A stretch of 20,000 bases of DNA from an uncultured virus (IMG/VR IMGVR_UViG_3300030060_004020). Taxonomy: Duplodnaviria; Heunggongvirae; Uroviricota; Caudoviricetes. Below the pieces are notes generated by a model that worked only from the letters and a program-made list of their open reading frames with translations, was not told the DNA's origin and did no database searches. Location: IMG/VR virus record IMGVR_UViG_3300030060_004020, positions 58,325 to 78,324 of that record; one strand, written 5' to 3'. The position numbers and the translations under genes were made by a program. Of this stretch, positions 7,176-20,000 are shown one piece after another (the stretch's first letter is position 1; each line of letters starts with the position of its first letter).

Positions 7176-9487
7176 TATTTCTCCTCCTTGAATAGTTTTC
7201 CGTCTATCATTTGTCTTAGCAAGTTCTCATCATAGTATAATGTCTTATAGTTCTCCGGCCTATTTGCTATGTCTTCTAATTTCTTCTTTAAAGATTTCTT
7301 AAACAATTCCCTTATTTTGTTTAAATCTTCATTAACTTTATTGGCGAGTTCTTCTATGGCTTCTTTAAGAGATTCATTTTCTAGTGAAAGATTTTCTCTA
7401 GCAATGTCACCGACTATCTCTTTCAAAGGTTTATTTGCTTCAACGGTTATTTCGTTTTCTTCGGCATCTAAGTCCTTTACTTCTACTTTCTTTTTGTATT
7501 CAGCCGCAGGGAATAGAAGTTCTGCCGTGTATAGGGCGACAGCAAAGGCTTGAGACTTATCCATTTTTTTAGACAGTAAATTTTCTATATTAGACTTTGA
7601 TATGACCTTACCTAATGTTTGGTCTTTTGGTAAAGAAACTAATAACTCATAAAACGCCTTAGCAATCTCATTAGAAAAATCATCGGCTGTTATTGGTTCT
7701 AGGTCTTCTAGTTCATCAATAAATTCACCAAGTTTTTCATCATCTTCATCCCACGATTCTTCTTCTTGCATTGTTTCTCTTACAAGGGGTTCTAGTCTTT
7801 TAATGAAGTCTCCTAACTCTTTATTGGTTGTAATGTATTTATTTCCTGCTCTTATCAAGTATTTACTCTTATCATCTGTGTTTTGAGTATCTAGGTTTTG
7901 AGTTCTAAACTTTCCATAAAGGTCTTCAAAGGTATCATCCTCTAAATTTTCTTTACTAAACAGCCATTTTATTACTTCTGCGTCAAACTCTTCAAAGTTT
8001 TCATCTCCGACTAATTCGTTGTATTCTTTTTCTGCTTCTGCTAATTCTTTATCACTTAACTCCGATGTCTTCTTATTTAATGCCCTAGCGACTGTTGCTT
8101 TAGCAGAATCTAACGAATATTTTGCAGTTCTTTTTGATAATCCCTTACTTGCTTCAAAAAAGGCATCCGAACCACTAGTAGTTAGCAATTGTTCAAAAAA
8201 TGGGTGAATTTCTAACTTTCTTGCCCCTCTAGCACCTTTTTGGAACATAAGATTATCAATTTTTTCATTATTTATCTTGAAAAGTAGAGGAGTTTTGTCT
8301 AATTGTCGCTTTGCTCTCTTTTCTCCACGAACTTTTATGCCAAATTGCATTTTGCTTGCTCCTAAGACATTCAAATATGTCTCTACTTGTTTTTCTCCGA
8401 CATTTTCAGCAATCAACTTAGTCAATTCAGCATCTTCCATAGCATAGCCGCCAATTTTTGTTTTATTTTGCAGTTTTTCATCCGAACTCACTAACAATTC
8501 ATACAATTCGGGATAATCAACATAAAAAAGGATTCTTGCTTTCTCATTTGCTCTCATTTTAGCGGCTCTTTGTGAATATTTAGCCGGTTTTAGGTCTTTT
8601 TGCTCTATATCCTTAAATGATTTTTTGCCACCAAGAATAATTCTTTTCTTTGTCCTTGCTTCAGCCGTAAATCCTTGTCTAAATGTCAAACGAACACCAT
8701 CTTTATCAACAAATTTAGATAAAAATTCTTCTTGTTCAATTTTTTTCCTTACGGGGATGTCTACAACCTTACCATAAAGCGTAAGATTTTCGTTTATCTT
8801 GTTTTTTGACTTAAATTTGTTGCTATTTGCTGTAAATTTTTTGAAATCTCCTACCTTTTTAGCATAAACTATACCTTCGATGTTTTCAATTCCAATCACA
8901 ATCAAGGCTTTGTTGAAAATAACACGGTCTTTGAAGAAATCTTGAACACTTACATTACTATCCTTGATACTGTTTTTCAAAACAACGGTCAATTTTTTTA
9001 GATTTTGTTGCCCTATTACCTTTCTTAGTCTATCTTTGCCTCCACCGGACAAATTTTTCTTTTGTTCTTCTAGTGAATTTCTCAAGTCTTGTAGTTGGTT
9101 TGAATTTAGCGTTTCTAAATTAGCATATTTGTTTATTTTTTCTATAAAACTTAAAGACTCAACAACTCTTTTTTCTTTACTATAATCTCTTTTAGTGGCC
9201 ATGTGTTTTTCCATAACCTTTGTGAATCTTTCGTAGACTTCCTCTAGCCTGTCTTTGTATTTTCTGTATGCCTCATTGAAATTTCTACGAAAAATATTTT
9301 TAAATTCTGTAACATTTGAGTAAAAATATTCTACTGAACCGGAAGAAGTAGTTTTTCCAAACTTAGACAGAACTTCTCTTTTAGCATCCTTTTTGTTTTC
9401 TGTTTTCTTATCAGAAAGCATGTCTTGATAAGTAGAATCACCCATCAAAAAATCCCAAAAGAAAGAAGCAGGAAAAGGAAATACCAC
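7175..9487 (-). CDS. 770-aa hypothetical protein (basic N-terminal half, acidic C-terminal half)
   Basis: Long ORF; GTG start after AGGTGG; stop overlaps the next start. Confidence 0.8.
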   Translation of the reverse strand: MVFPFPASFFWDFLMGDSTYQDMLSDKKTENKKDAKREVLSKFGKTTSSGSVEYFYSNVTEFKNIFRRNFNEAYRKYKDRLEEVYERFTKVMEKHMATKRDYSKEKRVVESLSFIEKINKYANLETLNSNQLQDLRNSLEEQKKNLSGGGKDRLRKVIGQQNLKKLTVVLKNSIKDSNVSVQDFFKDRVIFNKALIVIGIENIEGIVYAKKVGDFKKFTANSNKFKSKNKINENLTLYGKVVDIPVRKKIEQEEFLSKFVDKDGVRLTFRQGFTAEARTKKRIILGGKKSFKDIEQKDLKPAKYSQRAAKMRANEKARILFYVDYPELYELLVSSDEKLQNKTKIGGYAMEDAELTKLIAENVGEKQVETYLNVLGASKMQFGIKVRGEKRAKRQLDKTPLLFKINNEKIDNLMFQKGARGARKLEIHPFFEQLLTTSGSDAFFEASKGLSKRTAKYSLDSAKATVARALNKKTSELSDKELAEAEKEYNELVGDENFEEFDAEVIKWLFSKENLEDDTFEDLYGKFRTQNLDTQNTDDKSKYLIRAGNKYITTNKELGDFIKRLEPLVRETMQEEESWDEDDEKLGEFIDELEDLEPITADDFSNEIAKAFYELLVSLPKDQTLGKVISKSNIENLLSKKMDKSQAFAVALYTAELLFPAAEYKKKVEVKDLDAEENEITVEANKPLKEIVGDIARENLSLENESLKEAIEELANKVNEDLNKIRELFKKSLKKKLEDIANRPENYKTLYYDENLLRQMIDGKLFKEEK

Positions 9488-9639: not shown

Positions 9640-9905
9640 TGTAATTTCTCCTGCATTTTTCTAGTTATCATAACCATTTCATTATAGAAATCCCTCGCTT
9701 CATCTCTATTTTTTGCATTTTTTATTTTATCATAATATATTTTATATGTTTCAACAAAATCGTTCTGTTTCTTTTTCCAAAATTTATTTGTGATAAAAGG
9801 TCTAATATTGGTTTCCATGTTTTCTATTTGGTTTTGAATCCATTGGTAGTCGGGGTTTGATGCTCTTTCCCTAATGCTAAGTTTAACAATTTTTTCCCAA
9901 CTCAT
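9636..9905 (-). CDS. 89-aa W-leader protein
   Basis: Starts MSWEKIVK; ATGA overlaps on both sides. Confidence 0.8.
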   Translation of the reverse strand: MSWEKIVKLSIRERASNPDYQWIQNQIENMETNIRPFITNKFWKKKQNDFVETYKIYYDKIKNAKNRDEARDFYNEMVMITRKMQEKLQ

Positions 9906-9923
9906 TGTAATTTCTCCTGCATT
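9636..9923. repeat. 22-bp exact direct repeat flanking the 89-aa gene
   Basis: TCATTGTAATTTCTCCTGCATT at 9636-9657 and 9902-9923; both genes end MQEKLQ*. Confidence 0.9.
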
Positions 9924-10558
9924 CTTTTCTTAATGTCTAACCAAATTTCGGGATTGTTTTCAGCAAGCACTTCTTGAACAATTTGCATCTGTGCAAATAT
10001 AATTGTGTCCTGTCTCTTATGTATAAGTTTGCCCTTAAACTCCATGAGATATTTTAGCGACTCTCTAACTTCTTTCGCAAGTTTAGTTAGGCTATCTATC
10101 TCTCTAGGCTCTAAATCAACTGCACCAAACAAGTCATCTAACTTGCTATCCAGTCTTTGTATGTTATTACTTAGCAAATCAATTTCATTAACTTCTTTCT
10201 TTGCTATCATTACTGCGGCTGACTCTTGAACAATCGGTGCTAGATGGTGTTTCATATGTCGTTGCACTTGTTCTTTAGTAGTGTCTAATGCTTCGGCAAT
10301 TGCTTCAGCACTTATCTCACCATTGGCTAAGTTTTCTTCGTAGTGTTTTCTCATTGGGTCTGTGCATAATACACACTTAGGATTACTACTATTGACATAA
10401 TCTCCCATGTGGTTTCTTTGGTGTTGTGCCGCAGTTCCACTTCTCCAATCGTGTCTTGAATCTAAATCATCACAAGAAACCTCACCGGCTTCCAACATTC
10501 TTTCGAGTTCTTCTCTATCTTCATGTTGGCAAAAACCACAACGCTTTCTTGTTACCAT
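9902..10558 (-). CDS. Tandem CxxC-HTH-HxxxH protein with coiled coil; candidate terminase small subunit or DNA-binding protein
   Basis: CGFC...HQRNH and CVLC...HMKHH units followed by a helical tail; AGGTGA SD. The TerS role is inference. Confidence 0.7.
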   Translation of the reverse strand: MVTRKRCGFCQHEDREELERMLEAGEVSCDDLDSRHDWRSGTAAQHQRNHMGDYVNSSNPKCVLCTDPMRKHYEENLANGEISAEAIAEALDTTKEQVQRHMKHHLAPIVQESAAVMIAKKEVNEIDLLSNNIQRLDSKLDDLFGAVDLEPREIDSLTKLAKEVRESLKYLMEFKGKLIHKRQDTIIFAQMQIVQEVLAENNPEIWLDIKKRMQEKLQ

Positions 10559-10568
10559 TTTAAATCAC

Positions 10569-10910
10569 CTATTCGCTCCAAAGAACATCATATCTATTGT
10601 CGGAATATCTTACAATATCTACAGGAGAAACCTTAGAATGAAGTATTTTATCTGGGTCTACATCGTTAATTCCACTACCCTCTATGTCTATGTCTAATTC
10701 TTCTCCTGTATCATTAAAAACAACTTTATTGATACTCACTCCCATATCCCTAAACATAGATTTTCTAACTCCAAATTCCATACTCCAAAAAACTGTCACT
10801 TCTCTATCTTCTAAATATTTTCCATCCCGTTTTTCTGTATCTGTAAATGTAACATTATCCGTTTCAAATTCAAAATACTGTTGCGATTTTTTCAGTTCGT
10901 TTTTCCACAT
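10569..10910 (-). CDS. Beta-rich acidic W-leader protein
   Basis: Start moved to MWKNELKKS, which follows GGAGTTGA. Confidence 0.75.
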   Translation of the reverse strand: MWKNELKKSQQYFEFETDNVTFTDTEKRDGKYLEDREVTVFWSMEFGVRKSMFRDMGVSINKVVFNDTGEELDIDIEGSGINDVDPDKILHSKVSPVDIVRYSDNRYDVLWSE

Positions 10911-10914
10911 TTTA

Positions 10915-12033
10915 TCAACTCCATAAATATTCATGCCATGACTTTTGTATGTCATCCTTTGGAACTTTTAATCCTTTTAGATTTAGATGCTCGCCCCATG
11001 CTAACTTCTTTGACTTACCCTTTCCAACAACCGCTACGATAAGTGATGACATAGCAGTTGCTTTGAAAGGCTTTAATGAAAATGTTTTGATTTGACCCGC
11101 AGGTGGTTCTATACCTGCTATCTTTGAAAGTGCCTCTTTACTTGTTTTTTTGTTATCTAATGTAAACTTCATACCCGAAAAAGTGCTTGCCATTTCTGCC
11201 AACTTAGGAACTCCATTTTTCTTAAACAAGGTTTTTCTTTTTAGTAATCCCAATACATGCTTTCTAACAGGTGGGAAAATTGCTAACTTAGAAGGTAACT
11301 TAACCTGCAAGTGCATATTCTCAATTGCTTTATTTGATTCTGCCAAAGCAATCTTCAATATATCTTTTAATCCAACTTTAATCAAATCACCCCTACCGAA
11401 AAGGGCTTGAGCCAAAGGTGGGTTAGCCGTATTTGGTGTATCACTATACCATGTTGGAGGTGCTTTCTTTCCATATTTTTTCTTATACCACTCATTTGCA
11501 TAGTGGCCGTAAACTTTGTCTTTCTCTTTACCTATGGCATTACCATCAGCATCCGACTTTGCAGGAAAATTAAATACAGTATTTTTAGGATTTAAGGTGC
11601 TTGTTGCTTCTTCAAAACCTTCAATAGCATCTTGGAATTCTTGTAGTTTTTTTACATGGCTTACTAACAGAATCTTATCTTCTTTGAATTCTTCCATAAA
11701 TTCTTCTATGTCATCTAATAGAGTAAATGCTCCTGTGCTTCCCCTATTTGGCGACCTATCCCTTCTATATCCGCTAGTTACATGCTCTTTCAATTGTAAA
11801 TATAGATTAGCAGGGTGAGGCTGTCCACTCTTAGTATCTATTTGTCCAACCTTCTTTCCCTCTCTAGGTTTTCTAATTCTTCTACCTTCACTAAGTAATT
11901 TTTTCCTACCTATGCCTTGACACTTCTTAACCCAAGCCTCATACTCATCAATAAACTTGAATGAACCTCTAACTTCAATATCAGTGCTTCCAACCTTAAT
12001 CACGGACTTTTTCTTCTCGTCTTTTCTTACCAC
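10915..12033 (-). CDS. Basic hypothetical protein (~372 aa)
   Basis: Long ORF; likely GTG start at 12033 after GGAGGTG. Confidence 0.75.
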   Translation of the reverse strand: MVRKDEKKKSVIKVGSTDIEVRGSFKFIDEYEAWVKKCQGIGRKKLLSEGRRIRKPREGKKVGQIDTKSGQPHPANLYLQLKEHVTSGYRRDRSPNRGSTGAFTLLDDIEEFMEEFKEDKILLVSHVKKLQEFQDAIEGFEEATSTLNPKNTVFNFPAKSDADGNAIGKEKDKVYGHYANEWYKKKYGKKAPPTWYSDTPNTANPPLAQALFGRGDLIKVGLKDILKIALAESNKAIENMHLQVKLPSKLAIFPPVRKHVLGLLKRKTLFKKNGVPKLAEMASTFSGMKFTLDNKKTSKEALSKIAGIEPPAGQIKTFSLKPFKATAMSSLIVAVVGKGKSKKLAWGEHLNLKGLKVPKDDIQKSWHEYLWS

Positions 12034-15645: not shown

Positions 15646-15800
15646 GCAACAACCTCCTTTAACAGGTCGTAGTAAGATAAGGGTAATAAATGTAGTAGTT
15701 TTATGGGTTAATATGTTATACACAGTAGTTAATAGGTCAAAATTAACGATGAATGCTTATATTATTCAAATTAATAAAGAATAAAAAATTTTGGAACAAA

Positions 15801-15865
15801 GCCATATGGTTGTAGAGCAACCGATTAACAAGCATATGGTTCACTTTGAGAACACGAATTATATA
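15801..15865 (+). promoter_or_regulatory. Cassette element 1 (atypical, two CATATGGTT copies) plus TATA
   Basis: GCCATATGGTTG at 15801, AGCATATGGTTCACTTTGAGAAC at 15831, ATTATATA at 15858-15865. Confidence 0.8.
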
Positions 15866-15901
15866 TTATATCTATATTAAAGGGTAGAAAGAGTGATTAA
15901 A

Positions 15902-16324
15902 ATGGTATGTGAAGAATGCGGAAAAGCGAGTGAATATAATTTGTGTGTTGAATGTGTTAGAGACTTAGACGAAGATGACAGATTTGAACGCTTTATGCAA
16001 GCAGAAGAAATGGTAATGCCAAAAGACCCAAGAGAAAGGCAAGAATATCAATGCCCTAAGTGCAATGGCTTAGACTGTATCTATGGCGATTTTGTTTTGA
16101 ATGACTGGGAAGAGTTTAAACCTAAATTAACACCGACTGATAATGATATGTGGTGCCAATACTCGTATAACGGTGAAATAGTACAAGGTAATACCTTACT
16201 TGATGAAATTCAAGAGTTATCTTTCGCTTGTACTAAATGCGGCTATAATTTCAATGGTGATGATGAGGAACTCAATGAGAACATAGTTACTGTCATAGAG
16301 GCTTATAGGTGGGATGATGAATGA
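15902..16324 (+). CDS. Acidic zinc-finger protein (4 CxxC)
   Basis: CEEC, CVEC, CPKC, CTKC; ATG after GAGTGA. Confidence 0.8.
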   Translation: MVCEECGKASEYNLCVECVRDLDEDDRFERFMQAEEMVMPKDPRERQEYQCPKCNGLDCIYGDFVLNDWEEFKPKLTPTDNDMWCQYSYNGEIVQGNTLLDEIQELSFACTKCGYNFNGDDEELNENIVTVIEAYRWDDE

Positions 16325-16515
16325 TAGGAATTAAAGGTTGGGCAGTTTGGAATAATGAGGCTTGGTGTGTGGAATATGAAAACCTATACCGCACAAAAGA
16401 AGAGGCTATGAAGGCGGCTAAAAAGCACTATAGTTACATTGGAGACACTGAAGAAGACTATGGCGACCACATGGTGTGTGAAATTAAAATAACAGTTCAT
16501 TTTTCTTTATTTTGA
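16321..16515 (+). CDS. 64-aa hypothetical protein
   Basis: ATGA overlap with the upstream gene; followed by a terminator. Confidence 0.7.
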   Translation: MIGIKGWAVWNNEAWCVEYENLYRTKEEAMKAAKKHYSYIGDTEEDYGDHMVCEIKITVHFSLF

Positions 16516-16526
16516 TTTAAGCGGTT

Positions 16527-16572
16527 AAAAAACAACCCTGTATTTAGGTGCAGGGTTGTTTTTCCTTTTTTT
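16527..16572 (+). terminator. Hairpin plus T-tract, identical to 17007-17052
   Basis: AAAAACAACCCTG/CAGGGTTGTTTTT stem followed by CCTTTTTTT. Confidence 0.85.
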
Positions 16573-16575
16573 CGA

Positions 16576-16654
16576 GGTTTGGTGTCGTTATATATTATAA
16601 CGGTGATTGTGACACCAAACCATATGGTTTACTTTGGAATACCCGTTTCATATA
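16576..16654 (+). promoter_or_regulatory. Cassette element 2: hairpin, palindrome, TATA
   Basis: GGTTTGGTGTC-N24-GACACCAAACC, then ATATGGTTTACTTTGGAATAC, then TTCATATA. Confidence 0.85.
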
Positions 16655-16674
16655 GTTATATAGAGATAGTATGC

Positions 16675-16992
16675 ATGTCAAGCGTAATAGACAAATTTGA
16701 GCAAGAATTAAAGGACAACAATGTAGTTAAGTATGTACAATCAACAAATCAAAATATCAATCCTAAAAAAATAACTGAAATGTTAAATCGTAGGACTACA
16801 CTACATAAAATAATTAATGTTATGAAACAAATGAATTTGAGTGAGTCAATTTGGAATAAATTTAATCATGAAGAAATTGAAGAAATAGCAACAGCATTTC
16901 ACGCTGTTATAGATGAATTCAAGGAAGATAGTGAGGCACTATTCCAAACTGTCCAAGATTGGGAAGATTGGGCAGATAGGCGACCTTATTGA
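16675..16992 (+). CDS. 105-aa helical protein, probably leaderless
   Basis: Start moved to MSSVIDK, 21 nt after the TATA end. The ORF-track extension runs through the promoter element. Confidence 0.75.
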   Translation: MSSVIDKFEQELKDNNVVKYVQSTNQNINPKKITEMLNRRTTLHKIINVMKQMNLSESIWNKFNHEEIEEIATAFHAVIDEFKEDSEALFQTVQDWEDWADRRPY

Positions 16993-17006
16993 GGTCAAAA
17001 CGGTCA

Positions 17007-17052
17007 AAAAAACAACCCTGTATTTAGGTGCAGGGTTGTTTTTCCTTTTTTT
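17007..17052 (+). terminator. Hairpin plus T-tract, identical to 16527-16572
   Basis: 46-bp exact copy, 480 bp downstream. Confidence 0.85.
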
Positions 17053-17057
17053 ATTGA

Positions 17058-17135
17058 GGTTTGAGGTCGTTTTTATTAACTTACAAGATAGTAACCTCAA
17101 ACCATATGGTTCACTTTGAGAACTCAGTTCTTATA
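17058..17135 (+). promoter_or_regulatory. Cassette element 3
   Basis: GGTTTGAGGT-N26-ACCTCAAACC, then ATATGGTTCACTTTGAGAAC, then TTCTTATA. Confidence 0.85.
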
Positions 17136-17197
17136 CCAAACCATAGATAGGAGGTGCTTCAAGGGGTTGAAGTGTAATTATCATTGAGGTGAAAATT

Positions 17198-17674
17198 ATG
17201 AATTTGGAAAAACTAGAAACTAATAGAAATAACATACGAACATGGATGAAAGAAAATGAAAGCCCGCTTAATGATGCTTTAGAGGGTCTACTCACAGCAT
17301 CGGAGTTGGCTAAAACTGATGATGAAGCGGTCAAGTATTGGTCGTCAATTCGTTCACTTTGTGGCAACATGAGTCCTTCTCCTGTTAGAAAAGGTGTGCA
17401 ATCAAAATACTCTACTGAGGTTTTGGCAGTATTAGACGCTATTGGAACAGAAGTTGATGAGGCTTCAGTTCGCTACCATAACGACGGTATTATGTCTAAG
17501 GTATTGTTTTCTCACGGTAAATCCGGCGGAAAACAAATGCTAGCAGAAGTATTTGGAAAGACTATGAGAAACATGACCATTGGAAAACTTAAGAAAAAGT
17601 TGGATGATGGTATATGGGATGGAACTCTAGCCGGTTTAGACTCCTTGACCGAAATAACGGAGGATAATGAGTGA
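17198..17674 (+). CDS. Hypothetical protein, paralog of 18962-19471
   Basis: Shared YWxSIRxxCGNxxxSPxRKG and DGxWDGTL; ATG after GAGGTGA. Confidence 0.85.
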   Translation: MNLEKLETNRNNIRTWMKENESPLNDALEGLLTASELAKTDDEAVKYWSSIRSLCGNMSPSPVRKGVQSKYSTEVLAVLDAIGTEVDEASVRYHNDGIMSKVLFSHGKSGGKQMLAEVFGKTMRNMTIGKLKKKLDDGIWDGTLAGLDSLTEITEDNE

Positions 17675-17681
17675 TTAACAT

Positions 17682-17805
17682 TTCAACCCCTTGTTGCCCC
17701 TACTCCCGATTAGGCCGAATAGTGAAACTACTCTTACAGTGCAGTAAATAAGCACTTCTTAAGAGATTTGAAAAAATAGTTTCACTATTCGGTCTAAGTT
17801 TTTTT
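17682..17805 (+). other. Structured 3' UTR / terminator, copy A
   Basis: 17682-17693 pairs with the 5' leader at 17160-17171. A 21-bp stem (17710-17730 / 17777-17797) encloses an inner CTCTTA/TAAGAG stem; T-tract follows. Confidence 0.8.
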
Positions 17806-17811
17806 ATTTAG

Positions 17812-17893
17812 GGTTTGATGCGGCCTACGGCCTAAATGTTTAAAGAACATTTCATCAAACCATATGGTTTACTTTGAGAACCTGATTCATATA
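17812..17893 (+). promoter_or_regulatory. Cassette element 4
   Basis: GGTTTGATG-N32-CATCAAACC, then ATATGGTTTACTTTGAGAAC, then TTCATATA. Confidence 0.85.
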
Positions 17894-17913
17894 TCTATTG
17901 GTATAGAGATAGC

Positions 17914-18273
17914 ATGCGAAAGATAACAAAAGACGCAGTAAGAGCATTTGAACAGCACAAGAAATTTAAGAGAGGAAATACGACGGTTGAAGTTAGTGAA
18001 AGTAAATTATTTGCCGAACTAAAACTACACGGCAACACAATAGCCAAGAGTGGAGTATTTGAGGGCTTAATGATTTCATCAGCCGGTTGGAATACTGTAA
18101 CAACTAAGGAACGCTTGAACGGCCTTGAAGGTGTAAACATCCATCAAAAGGACTTCACATGGTATCTTAACGGCCGTGAGTGGAATGGTGCTTGGGTTGA
18201 TGTTGGAACTTGGAATTTATTAGATAAATTCCCCAATAAAACCTATAATTATTCGATGCACTACCTTAACTAA
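17914..18273 (+). CDS. Phage hypothetical protein, probably leaderless
   Basis: LHGNxIA, GWxTxTTKERLN and QKDFxWY motifs, recalled from phage hypothetical proteins; ATG 21 nt after TATA. Confidence 0.85.
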   Translation: MRKITKDAVRAFEQHKKFKRGNTTVEVSESKLFAELKLHGNTIAKSGVFEGLMISSAGWNTVTTKERLNGLEGVNIHQKDFTWYLNGREWNGAWVDVGTWNLLDKFPNKTYNYSMHYLN

Positions 18274-18305
18274 TTATGAACTAATATAGTCTGAGGACTA
18301 TAACT

Positions 18306-18345
18306 GCCTTCCTTGCCCTTTCGGGGGCAGGGTTGGCTTTTTTTT
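18306..18345 (+). terminator. GC-rich hairpin with TTCG loop plus T8
   Basis: TGCCCT-TTCG-GGGGCA followed by TTTTTTTT. A further TATAGTC/GACTATA hairpin lies at 18285-18302. Confidence 0.8.
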
Positions 18346-18347
18346 GG

Positions 18348-18428
18348 GGTTGTGAGTAATGTATTTTATAATACTAGGAGAGTATTACTCACAACCATAT
18401 GGTTCACTTTCGGAATACAGATTATATA
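18348..18428 (+). promoter_or_regulatory. Cassette element 5
   Basis: GGTTGTGAGTAAT-N23-ATTACTCACAACC, then ATATGGTTCACTTTCGGAATAC, then ATTATATA. Confidence 0.85.
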
Positions 18429-18448
18429 CCAAACAACAAGGAGGTTAA

Positions 18449-18813
18449 TGTAGGGCGACACCTTCGGGTGGTGCGGTCTTATGAAACATGAGCGAGGCGA
18501 CTGTGCATAGTCGCTACTCTTTGAGTGTAATTAAAACACGATGAACTGTGTTCGCAATAAGGTGAATTAGACCTATCTTTATGTTGAGGTGACGACCTCT
18601 TAACCTGCACGATATTCCAATGGCTATTAGTGGCCATAACACCATTGAGAAACAAAGGCGAAAGTCAAAGTTGAAAATGTAAGACGGCAGGATATAGAAA
18701 GAGATTGTAAGTCATACCAATACTAGTTGGGACTAGTATGACCTCTCATCAAACATGCTAAGTATCACGCATTCCCTTGCTTTGAACGAGTAGCCGGAGT
18801 TTCTCATTTTTTT
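18449..18813 (+). ncRNA. Putative ~360-nt structured non-coding RNA, family unrecognised
   Basis: Has its own promoter element and T-tract, no ORF in the track, and many hairpins (UUCG and GAAA loops). A long-range helix pairs 18646-18653 with 18799-18806. Confidence 0.7.
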
Positions 18814-18818
18814 ATTGA

Positions 18819-18895
18819 GGTTTGGCATCGTTATTATTACTTTACTGGTAGTAATGCCAAACCATATGGTTCACTTTGAGAACTTGAATTATATA
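18819..18895 (+). promoter_or_regulatory. Cassette element 6
   Basis: GGTTTGGCAT-N25-ATGCCAAACC, then ATATGGTTCACTTTGAGAAC, then ATTATATA. Confidence 0.85.
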
Positions 18896-18961
18896 CTATT
18901 AGACAAAGAGAAGTTGCTTCACAGGGTATGAAGTGAACTTACAAACATCGGAGAGATAAAT

Positions 18962-19471
18962 ATGATGGAATATAGTAAATTAATTAGCAAAACAGACGAT
19001 ATATTGACATGGCTTGATGTTAATGATGCAGGTGCTTTAGATAGTGCCATTCGAGGCATCATTGCAGTTGCTAGAGTCGAAGGACAAACAGAAAAACAAT
19101 ACGGTAACTATTGGGGTAGTATTCGCCAAATGTGCGGAAACCTCCCAAACTCACCAATCCGCAAAGGAACACAACCGTCGCTACCTGTAGAAGCACAAGC
19201 AGTTGTGGATTCTGTAATGACTCAAGTGCAAACTGCCTTTGCGGGTATTACTGAAAACACTGACCTACTTCTTGAAGTAGTGCTACCTTTTAGAAATACA
19301 ACTGGTAAAGGATTTGAGTCTATGGATGACCTAGCCGCATATTTGGCGGGTCGAGCCAAAGATGCTTTAGTCAAGGCTCACAAAGATGGTCGTTGGGATG
19401 GTACTCTTAACGATGGACTAACAGGTATGACTCCCCCTCAACCTGCATCAAAGAAGGAGGATAGCGAGTAA
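18962..19471 (+). CDS. Hypothetical protein, paralog of 17198-17674
   Basis: Shared YWxSIRxxCGNxxxSPxRKG and DGxWDGTL. Confidence 0.85.
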   Translation: MMEYSKLISKTDDILTWLDVNDAGALDSAIRGIIAVARVEGQTEKQYGNYWGSIRQMCGNLPNSPIRKGTQPSLPVEAQAVVDSVMTQVQTAFAGITENTDLLLEVVLPFRNTTGKGFESMDDLAAYLAGRAKDALVKAHKDGRWDGTLNDGLTGMTPPQPASKKEDSE

Positions 19472-19482
19472 GGCTAACTGAT

Positions 19483-19622
19483 TACCCTGTGTTGCCCCTC
19501 TACTAAATAAATTCGACAAATTAGCACCCAAAGGACATTACAACTCATACAGTCAAGAGAGTTCACGACTTCTTATGAGATAGTAAAAAATAAAGTGTCC
19601 TTTGGGTGTCTATGCTTTTTTT
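19483..19622 (+). other. Structured 3' UTR / terminator, copy B
   Basis: 19483-19491 pairs with the 5' leader at 18920-18928. Stem 19525-19537 / 19596-19608 encloses an inner CTCATA/TATGAG stem; T-tract follows. Confidence 0.8.
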
Positions 19623-19628
19623 ATGCAG

Positions 19629-19707
19629 GGTTTGAGGCGTAGAATAATATTCAACAAAAGAATGTGCCTCAAACCATATGGTTCACTTTCGGAACACAAT
19701 TGATATA
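19629..19707 (+). promoter_or_regulatory. Cassette element 7
   Basis: GGTTTGAGGC-N27-GCCTCAAACC, then ATATGGTTCACTTTCGGAAC, then TTGATATA. Confidence 0.85.
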
Positions 19708-19727
19708 GGCTATGACATGAAGATACC

Positions 19728-20000
19728 ATGACAGTAATAGATTGGCATGCAGAAGTTAAAGAATATAAAAAACACTATGATGATGATGATGGAATTCATG
19801 AATATGTAGACGGGTTACTCCCTGTATATTTTGGTGACATCAATCAAACATATCATGATGAGATAGGAACACCTCTCACCATTGAGATTGAACATCATCA
19901 TGTCGGCCTTGAGTTTTGGCGTATAATGGTAGGTCATATATTCGAGGCATATCTTGAGAAATTCGTAGAGGCTTGGAATGAATTAGAACAGGAGGAAGAA
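19728..20000 (+). CDS. Ocr-like (T7 gp0.3-like) acidic DNA-mimic protein, truncated by the window edge
   Basis: Manual translation: MTVIDWHAEVKEYKKHYDDDDGIHEYVDGLLPVYFGDINQTYHDEIGTPLTIEIEHHHVGLEFWRIMVGHIFEAYLEKFVEAWNELEQEEE. ATG lies 21 nt after TATA. Confidence 0.65.
   Translation, partial: MTVIDWHAEVKEYKKHYDDDDGIHEYVDGLLPVYFGDINQTYHDEIGTPLTIEIEHHHVGLEFWRIMVGHIFEAYLEKFVEAWNELEQEEE

Follow-up and report, generated by a model that had tools for sequence, protein, structure and literature searches.

The final 4.2 kb of this viral contig is the hyperplastic head of its rightward (replication-side) gene arm, in which seven small plus-strand units are each headed by a composite joint. In our judgement the array is probably an archaeal counterpart of the PeSL (promoter-early stem-loop) cassettes of T4-type phages, combining co-regulation through a palindromic operator with use of the joints as recombination homology. 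The parts of a joint follow one another as terminator, inverted repeat, the 10-bp palindrome ACCATATGGT, a BRE-like RGAAC, a TATA box and a start; the start is predicted ~21 nt past TATA, either at a leaderless ATG (on its A) or at a GCTTC leader (on its G). The features are as follows, in coordinates of the window, the 20,000-nt stretch that we analysed.

9902–10558, minus: 218-aa protein; two CxxC/HTH-like repeats, coiled-coil tail (weak matches).
15800–15811, no strand assigned: palindrome copy AGCCATATGGTT at the point where two gene arms diverge (motif scan).
15800–15822, no strand assigned: left-border element, AGCCATATGGTT plus a mini hairpin; six related arrays have the same border.
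15830–15886, plus: joint 1; one-mismatch palindrome 15830–15841, GAGAAC 15848–15853, ATATA 15861–15865, start predicted at ~15886.
15902–16515, plus: unit 1 cargo (ORFs); 140-aa protein with CxxC pairs, 15902–16324 (weak zinc-ribbon matches only, Pfam), and 64-aa ORF, 16321–16515 (ORF list).
16528–16675, plus: joint 2; terminator stem 16528–16563, T-run 16566–16572, inverted repeat 16576–16621 (46 nt), palindrome 16618–16629, TATA 16650–16654, start/ATG 16675.
16675–16992, plus: unit 2 cargo; apparently leaderless 105-aa ORF, without a match in family searches.
17008–17156, plus: joint 3; terminator stem 17008–17043, T-run 17046–17052, inverted repeat 17058–17103 (46 nt), palindrome 17100–17111, TATA 17131–17135, predicted start G 17156.
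17156–17805, plus: unit 3; GCTTC leader 17156–17197, 158-aa ORF 17198–17674, structured 3' UTR, T-run 17799–17805.
17812–17914, plus: joint 4; inverted repeat 17812–17861 (50 nt), palindrome 17858–17869, TATA 17889–17893, ATG 17914.
17914–18273, plus: unit 4 cargo; 119-aa protein of a family of unknown function, Kyano_Gp96 (PF23790) and phrog_554 (E 1.6e-22; E 1.1e-17, 64.6 bits, cutoff 27).
18311–18449, plus: joint 5; terminator stem 18311–18332, T-run 18338–18345, inverted repeat 18348–18396 (49 nt), palindrome 18393–18404, TATA 18424–18428, start predicted at ~18449–18452.
18449–18813, plus: unit 5; no ORF above 30 aa past the predicted start.
18819–18916, plus: joint 6; inverted repeat 18819–18863 (45 nt), palindrome 18860–18871, TATA 18891–18895, predicted start G 18916.
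18916–19622, plus: unit 6; GCTTC leader, 169-aa ORF 18962–19471 (a paralogue of the unit 3 protein), 3' UTR, T-run 19616–19622.
19629–19728, plus: joint 7; inverted repeat 19629–19675 (47 nt), palindrome 19672–19683, TATA 19703–19707, ATG 19728.
19728–20000, plus: unit 7 cargo; ORF open at the contig end (ORF list).

The mini hairpin of the left border (GGTTG-tagag-CAACC, 15808–15822) begins with the GGTT of the AGCCATATGGTT copy. Read on the minus strand, this copy is followed by CTTTGTTCC and then by a T/A-rich stretch, so it faces the opposite arm and probably serves that leftward arm.

Searching for the 12-mer AACCATATGGTT with up to two mismatches returned eight matches, six exact and two with one mismatch (15800 and 15830), where dinucleotide shuffles led us to expect 1.14 and none of 200 reached eight. 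An 18-mer containing Y (at most one mismatch) matched the whole 78,324-bp record seven times forward and never in reverse, always on the plus strand within window positions 15830–19689 and thus only in the record's final 4.2 kb; a control pattern had no match in the record. The seven copies listed in the initial annotation stand, except that unit 1 has AAG rather than AAC before CATATG and that the list lacked the copy at 15800. A recount gave the same CATATG starts (15833, 16621, 17103, 17861, 18396, 18863 and 19675) and unit lengths (788, 482, 758, 535, 467 and 812). The TATA phase described there is also borne out, as offsets 28–32 from the C of CATATG read ATATA or TTATA in six of seven copies, with the unit 2 box shifted by one. 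The same is true of a start ~21 nt past TATA, which coincides with the ORF's ATG in units 4 and 7 (offset 53) and unit 2 (offset 54, in frame, 16675), and with the G of GCTTC in units 3 and 6 (offset 53). Complete units had further been said to end in a hairpin plus T-tract: a run of 7–8 T closes all six, and a simple terminator scan recognised the stem in only three, missing the others because their loops are long.

This geometry recurs in related contigs. Among 64 distinct canonical elements, ATG lies at offset 52–54 in 25 and GCTTC at offset 53–55 in 22, and in the remaining 17 a Shine-Dalgarno-like GGTGA or GGAGG sits in a short leader. Five related records (three complete) contain ACCATATGGT 6, 8, 5, 12 and 11 times, in a single 3–5 kb cluster per record with none outside it, and the backwards control of ACCATATGGT was absent from all five. 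The single-cluster rule extends even to G003 and G004, whose capsid protein is 50–51% identical. In G002 the palindrome-to-TATA spacing is off by 1–3 nt while the GAAC-to-TATA and TATA-to-ATG spacings are unchanged; as the shift is confined to the palindrome side, operator and core promoter appear to be separable.

Cassette sets and orders differ among the seven related arrays compared, in line with the earlier suggestion that cargo and order vary. With cassettes as letters, the window reads I C B G O A W7; G001 reads H E V I J B G A W7, where the counterpart of unit 7 is the final motif-bearing unit; and the CEWG, Ga0160423 and Ga0098043 contigs read P H E C B R J A W7, S H E C J B G A and P H E C B T L A W7, respectively. 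G002, with a capsid protein 99% identical, has W7-like, W6-like, gp96-like and W3-like units in that order, and a contig from run X1, possibly the source sample, runs from the end of unit 2 straight into unit 4, skipping unit 3. Homology ends concentrate at the joints: counting non-independent pairwise BLAST ends from seven arrays, 80 of 174 fall within −75 to +35 of a CATATG start (20% expected) and 130 of 174 within −140 to +75 (39% expected).

Our analysis also supports the archaeal-virus reading of the initial annotation, the virus appearing to be a magrovirus-like, archaeal-type tailed virus of marine archaea. The capsid protein matches 11 records, every one of them an archaeal tailed virus, and the replication genes are of archaeo-eukaryotic type, with RFC, an ERCC4/XPF protein with HhH, a split family-B polymerase and ATP-dependent ligases; a Cas4-like nuclease is encoded as well. 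Cyanophages too are numerous among the matches of the polymerase (931 records), which, like the terminase matches given below, counts against our main reading. The two closest relatives, G001 and G002, encode a TFB/TFIIB homologue downstream on the same strand, in which Pfam finds a zinc ribbon and HTH; its best profile match in the PDB is archaeal TFB (1D3U/1AIS, E 4e-4), and Foldseek ranks 1–39 go without exception to TFIIB, TFB or Brf proteins (best E 3.8e-7). No TFB homologue occurs in the 78 kb of this incomplete contig (CheckV completeness 84%). TFB functions in monomeric form and would not be expected to recognise a palindrome, which counts against it as the palindrome binder. The statement that the window contains no recognisable regulator needs qualifying: a TFB homologue exists in the clade, though outside this contig, and the window does hold a candidate DNA-binding protein in the weakly matching zinc-ribbon/HTH-like 218-aa product, which is conserved in G001–G004 and could equally be a small terminase.

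In units 3 and 6, the 5' end of the predicted mRNA would pair with the stop-codon region. The 5' arm of unit 3 (17156–17187) pairs with 17664–17697, across the stop codon and with GTTGC at its end, and that of unit 6 (18916–18943) with 19467–19495. This GCTTC-leader/stop-codon helix is 20–30 nt long, its first base being offset 53. Over 17 distinct cassettes, cognate pairs average −30.2 kcal/mol against −14.3 ± 4.2 kcal/mol for non-cognate pairs (n=234), and at positions 7, 8 and 11–13 the pairs are of several types. RNA-library contigs are identical to 17429–17663, inside the unit 3 ORF, and to 18997–19165, inside the unit 6 ORF; DNA carry-over is possible in both cases, and the matches do not prove transcription. 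Only contigs within these two ORFs came from the RNA runs, and no transcript 5' end was seen, which counts against the promoter reading. Unit 5, by its lack of an ORF above 30 aa, is a non-coding RNA or else a cassette that has decayed. A conserved ~200-nt module makes up its 3' half (18613–18813) and trails different cargo in relatives; the unit has no match in Rfam, and its fold z-score of −1.69 is not significant.

Because the TATA-to-ATG distance is fixed and the covarying helix starts exactly at offset 53, a promoter role for the joints is plausible. Host RNA polymerase with TBP and a TFB of host or virus would start at each TATA box, and a dimeric protein on the palindrome, one fixed distance upstream, could switch all units together, on or off. 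The near-identical joints, 40–200 bp long and recurring every 0.5–0.8 kb, would offer homology to the virus's general recombination machinery, by which whole promoter-gene-terminator units may be gained, lost or moved with their neighbours intact. Three further features count against this cassette model. A start at offset 53 puts the TATA centre near −24/−25, about 2 nt closer than the usual archaeal position of −26/−27; GGAG-like letters stand 3–6 nt before the ATG of several apparently leaderless units and could be the ribosome-binding site of a transcript started further upstream; and the covarying inverted repeat is left without explanation.

That repeat, GGTT(T)G...C(A)AACC, keeps its pairing while the inner sequence changes and its span stays near 46 nt (45–50 nt in the window's copies). 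All 25 distinct arm pairs keep positions 1–8 paired, with 3–4 pair types at positions 6–8, and at positions 6–12 pairing is found in 135 of 175 cells, where shuffles give 77.7 ± 6.2. Such persistence would suit an integron-like site-specific system, in which repeat and palindrome fold into an attC-like site used by a dedicated or structure-specific enzyme and cassettes leave as excised circles. Integron arrays likewise consist of small same-strand cassettes with a structured, imperfect inverted repeat at their ends; the conserved ends, variable middle and ~46-nt span recall attC, mismatches without strand bias (13 G-T, 13 A-C) fit a DNA-level structure, the repeat mostly moves with its upstream cassette in related arrays, and the ERCC4/XPF-type and Cas4-like nucleases are at hand. 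We nonetheless regard this explanation as improbable. The initial annotation saw no integrase in the window, and none, nor any resolvase or match to PF00589 or PF00239 (tyrosine and serine recombinases), was found in G000–G004 (five records, three complete). The single crossover at the palindrome that it entertained also conflicts with homology ends at several places, at least four, spread over ~200 nt of joint, and with a promoter and terminator in every cassette, unlike integron cassettes. On the Ga0160423 contig the repeat exchanged partners on both sides; its conserved ends, GTT...AAC, reverse the AAC...GTT order of attC; and no circle junctions were seen, 'goes back' joints being explained by relatives with other orders.

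It is very unlikely that the palindromes form a replication origin or packaging-related iteron field lying beside promoters by coincidence. They do cluster where two gene arms diverge, and G004 has 11 exact sites and one variant in a 3.6-kb stretch with few long ORFs, but every copy in the lineage shares an orientation-specific right flank and a fixed distance to TATA box and gene start, and the copies are distributed one per gene across 4 kb, not grouped about an AT-rich unwinding region. The joints might also be RNA processing signals, with polymerase reading through the whole array and the hairpin and palindrome marking where the long transcript is cleaved into RNAs of unit length; this we hold to be highly improbable. 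The hairpins are conserved as structures and archaeal termination at T-runs can be leaky, yet strong T7–8 runs precede each hairpin, and the hairpin arms show no preference between G-U and A-C, whereas one-by-one mismatches in the helix of units 3 and 6 do favour G-T (49 against 2 A-C, a count that includes some chance matches from GC-rich contigs). Bacterial-phage sigma-70 promoters (TTCACT/TTTACT as −35, TATAnn as −10 and a 12-nt leader with a GGAG ribosome site) are hardly credible, for although a scan lists TTCACT or TTTACT with a 16–17 nt spacer and TATATT, TATAGT or TATACT at units 1, 2 and 6, GGAG-like letters precede several ATGs and the large terminase finds its nearest matches in a phage collection among bacteriophages (22–28% identity), promoter-like sites are not enriched (17 versus 14.8 ± 3.9 in shuffles), the sixth base of the supposed −10, where a conserved T is expected, varies between C, G and T, the capsid protein matches archaeal viruses only, the clade's TFB homologue would have no role beside a bacterial polymerase, and the RNA helix of units 3 and 6 begins at offset 53 instead of ~41.

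The PeSL-like reading can be set against several published systems. PeSLs, as presented by Arbiol et al. (2010, PMC2839356) and Comeau et al. (2014, PMC4122927), combine terminator and promoter in a small motif that recurs between non-essential small genes of a hyperplastic region; near relatives differ by whole-unit insertion, deletion or replacement at the motifs, and no dedicated recombinase is known. The model proposed there for T4-type phages has units exchanged via motif homology, less than 50 bp being thought sufficient. The joints share these traits but have archaeal TATA-type instead of sigma-70-type promoters of bacterial phages, an invariant 10-bp palindrome at fixed phase, and a second inverted repeat that is separate from the terminator, covaries and spans 46 nt; moreover, mini-circles were shown for PeSLs.

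Three archaeal analogues in print were not mentioned in the initial annotation. The haloarchaeal myovirus HGTV-1, a tailed virus with a high G+C genome, has a conserved intergenic motif (Sencilo et al. 2013, as cited in PMC3950731) that has been compared with PeSLs and places TATA-like boxes and an inverted repeat before most small ORFs of one arm. Inspecting 29 of its upstream regions (KC292026) by eye, with no formal count, we saw these elements in most, followed by a BRE/TATA-like CGAAAG-CTTAATAC ~25–30 nt before the ATG; the motif has no sequence similarity to the joint, ACCATATGGT is absent from the regions inspected, and the inverted repeat is conserved in sequence (CTCCTCG...CGAGGAG), not covarying. 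Class I and II repeats of HF2, another archaeal tailed virus (Russ, Pfeiffer and Dyall-Smith 2021, PMC8707807), are likewise confined to intergenic sites (58 bp, 7 copies, motifs nowhere else in the genome), and cloned repeats had promoter activity in nine of nine cases. They are genome-wide, however, with positions conserved among relatives rather than heading a reshuffled array, and the abstract and section 3.1 of that paper describe no palindrome or covarying hairpin. In SIRV2 and other crenarchaeal viruses, a consensus regulatory sequence, thought to bind the viral regulator Aca8, precedes early/anti-defence genes whose expression sets in immediately upon infection (Bhoobalan-Chitty et al. 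2024, PMC11065993). There too, a BRE+TATA promoter and a regulator-type site are common to numerous small single genes of one region that are unrelated to each other, and this system is the published form of the co-regulated early/anti-defence idea, although the viruses are rod-shaped, infect Sulfolobales and use another motif, and their timing and anti-defence activity were measured.

For units 3 and 6 only, the nearest parallel is the B. subtilis hbs mRNA, whose 5'/3'-UTR pairing modulates ribonuclease access (Braun, Durand and Condon 2017, PMC5737220). Both are long-range pairings, but that of hbs, as reported, is 14 bp in a bacterial mRNA, whereas the viral one is 20–30 nt, runs from the predicted first base of the RNA over the stop codon, and belongs to a multi-copy viral family. 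Across this lineage, relatives have their small genes reshuffled at the joints; the promoter cassettes of T4-type phages and of salt-lake archaeal viruses present much the same picture.

Seven joints lie within 4.2 kb of the window; each combines a T-run terminator and an inverted repeat with a promoter-like segment, and together they head units 1–7 on the + strand. The array is as the initial annotation had described it in copies, coordinates, unit lengths, TATA position and start offset: CATATG recurs at 15833, 16621, 17103, 17861, 18396, 18863 and 19675, giving complete units of 788, 482, 758, 535, 467 and 812 nt. With up to two mismatches, AACCATATGGTT matches eight times against 1.14 expected, a count reached by none of 200 shuffles, and across the whole record an 18-mer search allowing one mismatch returned seven forward hits, every one inside the array, and none in reverse. 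An extra palindrome copy at 15800 faces the leftward arm. Alignment of the window with related arrays gives one order for the joint: terminator stem and T-run, then an inverted repeat of the form GGTT(T)G...C(A)AACC, then the palindrome, which shares its first AACC with the end of that repeat. To the right of the palindrome follow (C/T)ACTTT, RGAAC, five or six variable bases, (T)T-N-ATATA, about 20 bases and the start. Counted from the C of CATATG, TATA occupies offsets 28–32 (shifted by one in unit 2) and the predicted start falls at offset 53 (54 in unit 2). All six complete units end in a run of seven or eight Ts, preceded in three of the six by a stem detectable in a simple terminator scan.

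The same geometry recurs among 64 distinct canonical elements from related contigs, counted among the matches listed: 46 carry ATATA at offsets 28–32, 25 have ATG at offsets 52–54 and 22 have GCTTC at offsets 53–55, so that one or the other stands at offsets 52–55 in 47, and the other 17 have a short leader with GGTGA/GGAGG. RGAAC, a candidate BRE, sits 8–9 nt before TATA, a distance kept where the palindrome spacing changes; in the related record G002 the stretch from palindrome to GAAC differs and is 1–3 nt longer, with the GAAC–TATA and TATA–ATG distances unchanged. Since spacing changes only between palindrome and GAAC, operator and core promoter appear to be separable modules. Read from sequence, this architecture fits a predicted archaeal TATA/BRE promoter. 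Sigma-70-like sites are not enriched (17 versus 14.8), and the joints do not appear to share the sigma-70-like early promoter of PeSLs, the promoter/terminator motifs of T4-type phages. A looser core-promoter pattern run across the genome gave nothing informative. Two of the 21 sequencing runs listed are RNA runs, containing 0.09 and 0.06 of the sampled words, and they yielded four short contigs within or adjoining cargo and no transcript ends.

Further support for an archaeal setting came from the closest relatives, G001 and G002, whose capsid proteins are 98% and 99% identical to that of this virus. Downstream of the array and on its strand, both encode a TFB/TFIIB homologue of 278–283 aa.

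TFB homologues in the closest relatives
G002:C1:47177–48025 (L207:3177–4025), minus strand: zinc ribbon and two cyclin folds
G001:C1:71848–72681, same strand as array: zinc ribbon and two cyclin folds

In Pfam, Zn_Ribbon_TF fell short of its cutoff of 29 with 24.2 bits, and HTH_11 scored 27.4. Profile comparison with the PDB placed archaeal TFB first (1D3U_B/1AIS_B, E 4e-4) over the whole core, with the zinc ribbon matching 1PFT at E 0.0066. In the structural model (mean pLDDT 71.7; core 76–95), every Foldseek match in ranks 1–39 was to TFIIB, TFB or Brf (E 3.8e-7 at best), and the domain layout of an N-terminal zinc ribbon followed by two cyclin-fold domains was present. The family comprises 41 clusters, some on 83–92 kb contigs. 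It was not found in the 78 kb of this contig, probably because the gene sits in the missing part. A virus with a TFB homologue makes use of archaeal transcription machinery.

The window is the final 20 kb of a linear 78,324-bp record (G+C 34%; CheckV completeness 84%). In record coordinates, rightward genes at 1–17.7 kb form a replication module, leftward genes at 18–74 kb form a structural module, and rightward genes resume at 74.1 kb and run to the contig end. Because gene directions switch at window ~15,750–15,830, the array begins where the arms diverge; it is the head of a rightward arm whose continuation is absent from the contig. All 11 matches of the capsid protein in a phage collection are archaeal tailed viruses (21–25% identity) with hosts in Haloarcula, Methanomassiliicoccales and Methanofastidiosa. 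This agrees with magroviruses, for which the available text of PMC5434244 describes capsid, portal and protease resembling only haloarchaeal tailed virus counterparts, along with a near-complete archaeal-type replication module (DNAP B, clamp loader, ligase, nucleases, a RadA-like protein, MCM, primase and clamp) and, in one subgroup, split polymerases. Here we recognised a split family-B polymerase, RFC and two ATP-dependent ligases, as well as a Sak4/RadA-like ATPase and two nucleases, one Cas4-like and one of ERCC4/XPF type with HhH; no MCM, primase or PCNA was recognised in the 78 kb of this 84% complete contig. Counting against an archaeal-type reading, the nearest matches of the large terminase are bacteriophages (22–28% identity), and the polymerase too matches hundreds of cyanophage records, although its best 15 matches are haloviruses. 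Judged against the published description of magroviruses, these features fit a magrovirus-like virus. The earlier reading of an archaeal virus is thus borne out by the capsid matches and by the TFB homologue in the closest relatives.

Several observations on these genomes stand apart. In one locus (L056) the family-B polymerase is split into two ORFs, 7411–9075 and 10864–11769, and the gap of about 1.8 kb contains small ORFs. Record G000 has a 2865-aa ORF among its tail genes (G000:C1:21478–30075, L057:2478–11075, minus strand) with no PHROG or Pfam match, and likewise none for its ORFs of 1174, 817 and 770 aa. The array had no blastn match in the phage collection, a search for relatives via a 109-aa flank gene found none, and a search via the unit 3 protein recovered G001 alone.

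We then considered the palindrome across five related records, G000–G004, three of them complete. A scan of the whole contig and these relatives, as the initial annotation had advised, found it in a single region per genome. ACCATATGGT occurs 6, 8, 5, 12 and 11 times in G000–G004, in every record confined to one cluster of 3–5 kb, and its backwards control occurs in none of the five. Another clade is represented by G003 and G004, whose capsid proteins are 50–51% identical; there the consensus is a longer palindrome, cTTACCATATGGTAAGg. The 12 sites of G003 fall within 3.9 kb, and those of G004 are as follows.

L208 2727–6332 = G004:C1:68727–72332: 12 CCATATGG palindromes (11 exact and one variant), spread over 3.6 kb in which long ORFs are few

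Conservation of ACCATATGGT confined to one regulatory region looks like that of a putative operator for a dimeric protein. A conserved 218-aa Zn/HTH-like protein of the window is, at most, a candidate binder.

We asked how cargo is distributed among such joints. An exact 18-mer scan of metagenomes returned at least 147 stretches, many of them on marine contigs with arrays. From 80 among the matches listed, we kept 39 loci on 22 contigs with hairpin and TATA context, setting aside a second marine class and GC-rich contigs in which the 18-mer starts a coding sequence. In those GC-rich contigs (L061, L075, L076, L083 and similar loci) it forms the first codons, ATG GTT YAC TTT, shortly downstream of a promoter-like pair, TTGAC...TACT, and we rejected these matches as array elements and ascribed them to chance. 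Clustering cargo by blastn over 24 stretches (the 22 metagenome contigs, the window and G001) allowed arrays to be compared as strings of cassettes.

Cassette orders in the window and related arrays (letters name cargo clusters)
Window: I C B G O A W7
Contig near-identical to the window: I C B G O
G001: H E V I J B G A W7
CEWG01023017.1: P H E C B R J A W7
Ga0160423_10011667: S H E C J B G A
Ga0098043_1002204: P H E C B T L A W7
G002: W7-like, W6-like, gp96-like, W3-like, same strand

Units B, gp96-like, A and W7 are shared and keep their relative order, and units I, J, O/L, H, P/S and V are present, absent or moved from one array to another. The units of G002 share only 70–80% DNA identity despite the 99% identical capsid protein. 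In seven arrays with three or more elements, 80 of 174 internal BLAST homology ends lie within −75 to +35 of the CATATG start (20% expected) and 130 of 174 within −140 to +75 (39% expected), the ends not being independent; they pile up at about −134, −72 to −54, −3, +14 to +33 and +55 to +71. As with PeSLs, relatives therefore differ by unit indels and replacements with junctions in the motif, and the suggestion that cargo content and order vary with breakpoints at the element held up. In run X1, possibly the source sample, one contig joins 16837–17052 to 17913–18184, passing from the end of unit 2 to unit 4 and skipping unit 3; this variant is 85–90% alike to the window and suggests that cassette content varies within one sample. 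Joints in runs X1 and X2 that go back to an earlier unit were considered as excised circles and rejected, as relatives such as G002 carry the units in other order.

Because orders differ, homology ends are spread, a unit-3-less variant exists and neither PF00589 nor PF00239 proteins are encoded in G000–G004, recombination within the repeated homologous joints, as in PeSLs, fits the sequences better than a single-site recombinase. We weighed a second route, integrase-free cassette exchange in archaeal viruses in which the repeat of ~46-nt span, welded to the palindrome, acts as a DNA-level folded site (cruciform or single-strand hairpin). The virus's own structure-specific nucleases and annealing proteins (XPF/ERCC4-type, Cas4-like and RadA/Sak4-like) would then excise and insert promoter–gene–terminator units, and a palindrome-binding protein would serve as both expression switch and synapsis factor; we regard this route as improbable. 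The inverted repeat on which it turns was collected in 57 distinct copies, reducing to 25 distinct arm pairs. Positions 1–8 are paired in all 25, positions 6–8 showing three or four pair types, and positions 6–12 are paired in 135 of 175 cells versus 77.7 ± 6.2 (maximum 99) when arms were shuffled among repeats. Measured from GGTT to AACC, the repeat covers 40–72 nt, with a median of 46 nt. Mismatches comprise 13 G-T and 13 A-C, an equality that gives no sign of one selected RNA strand. The repeat is mostly kept with the upstream cassette, with partners changed on both sides in one array, and so behaves as a semi-independent module.

The integron-like part of the initial interpretation was not supported: a control search found PF00589 in 14 of 14 reference genomes, no tyrosine-recombinase integrase of that family lies next to the array in any of G000–G004, the cassettes are not promoterless (each has its own joint and terminator), homology ends at several places, and likeness of the inverted repeat to attC is limited to its being a covarying imperfect palindrome. 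What stands of that interpretation is an archaeal virus, cassettes predicted to be headed by promoters, and shuffling at joints.

Units 3 and 6, whose cargo proteins are paralogous, have a further feature in their predicted transcripts.

End pairings, predicted mRNA start with stop-codon region
17156–17187 with 17664–17697, + strand: unit 3
18916–18943 with 19467–19495, + strand: unit 6

In these units and their relatives, the GCTTC leader at offset 53 pairs with a segment running from the stop codon as far as a conserved GTTGC, enclosing the ORF as a loop; the helix opens with two G-C pairs, which a UU/UU internal loop separates from 10–25 more pairs. Cognate duplexes average −30.2 kcal/mol over 17 distinct cassettes, one of them doubtful (L106, + strand, −19.4 kcal/mol), versus −14.3 ± 4.2 kcal/mol for 234 non-cognate combinations. 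Positions 7, 8 and 11–13 show three to five pair types and are paired in 16–17 of the 17, and one-by-one mismatches are G-T in 49 cases versus A-C in 2, a count that includes chance matches from GC-rich contigs. The pattern fits a predicted RNA helix on the + strand. As it begins at the predicted start base, the helix lends indirect support to that start and hence to the TATA assignment. Pairing of 5′ and 3′ UTRs has a bacterial precedent in hbs mRNA, as described in the available text of PMC5737220.

The proteins themselves gave few clues. The unit 3/6 family has 33 distinct members in the loci examined, among the matches listed, with several copies per genome, and 68 database clusters drawn from metagenomes only, all lacking a Pfam domain and named 'hypothetical protein' apart from one automatic 'DnaJ-domain-containing protein 1' label. 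Searches of Pfam and PHROG returned no match. The model is helical and confident (pLDDT 87) and had no significant Foldseek match (best E 1.5); a VIA-align match at Z 7.7 was discarded, as it covers the first 60 residues only and lies in the common range for helical models. Paralogues also occur past the last palindrome (L054 14362–14832 and L055 287–757), without GCTTC leader or end pairing. Unit 4 matches Pfam Kyano_Gp96 and phrog_554, and the best ESM Atlas score for the unit 1 protein was 0.88, below a quotable level. Unit 5 has no ORF longer than 30 aa after the predicted start, and its 3′ half is a module of its own.

18613–18813, + strand: ~200-nt module, invariant at its 5′ and 3′ ends and variable in between

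It is closed by TGAGAAAC/GTTTCTCA just ahead of the T-run and trails different cargo in ten contexts among the matches listed; we saw no compensatory pairs in it, and Rfam returned nothing for it. A 51-nt fragment of the module occurs with other flanks in a contig from an RNA-library run. Over the array, Rfam gave nothing above threshold (Thr-leader and rimP-like hits were sub-threshold, on two identical terminators), and five loci with the second class of motif had no match either.

Comparable systems are described in the available portions of several papers. In T4-type phages, hyperplastic regions carry the PeSLs, which combine promoter and terminator in one motif; indels between close relatives sit at these motifs, mini-circles are formed, and no dedicated recombinase is known (PMC2839356, PMC4122927). 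An archaeal counterpart has been noted in HGTV-1 (PMC3950731). Inspecting that record by eye, we found in most of 29 upstream regions a common motif that has TATA-like boxes, a conserved inverted repeat and a BRE/TATA-like box ~25–30 nt before ATG. Promoter activity has been measured for HF2 intergenic repeats (PMC8707807), and in SIRV2 the small early genes have in common a BRE/TATA promoter and a putative regulator site, a feature used in predicting anti-defence genes (PMC11065993). The present array differs from its analogues in its clade-wide palindrome, in its covarying fixed-span repeat and in belonging to an abundant uncultured virus group. A literature search for PeSL together with archaeal returned a halovirus review alone. 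We found no mention of magrovirus gene regulation (promoter, TATA, palindrom-, inverted repeat) in the available text of PMC5434244, PMC10160649 and PMC11706807, and the words intergenic and hypervariable do not appear in that of the latter two.

Magroviruses, tailed viruses assigned to Poseidoniales, are described in PMC5434244 as abundant and uncultured, infecting an archaeal group that is among the commonest in surface oceans. The joint offers a sequence handle for finding their accessory, probably host-interaction, genes, for predicting transcript starts and for fishing out the putative regulator that would bind ACCATATGGT. The PeSL idea, that repeated regulatory joints serve as recombination linkers, has until now concerned bacterial T4-type phages and one haloarchaeal virus; it would here reach a third, ecologically important lineage, with the covarying repeat as an added feature worth experimental attention.
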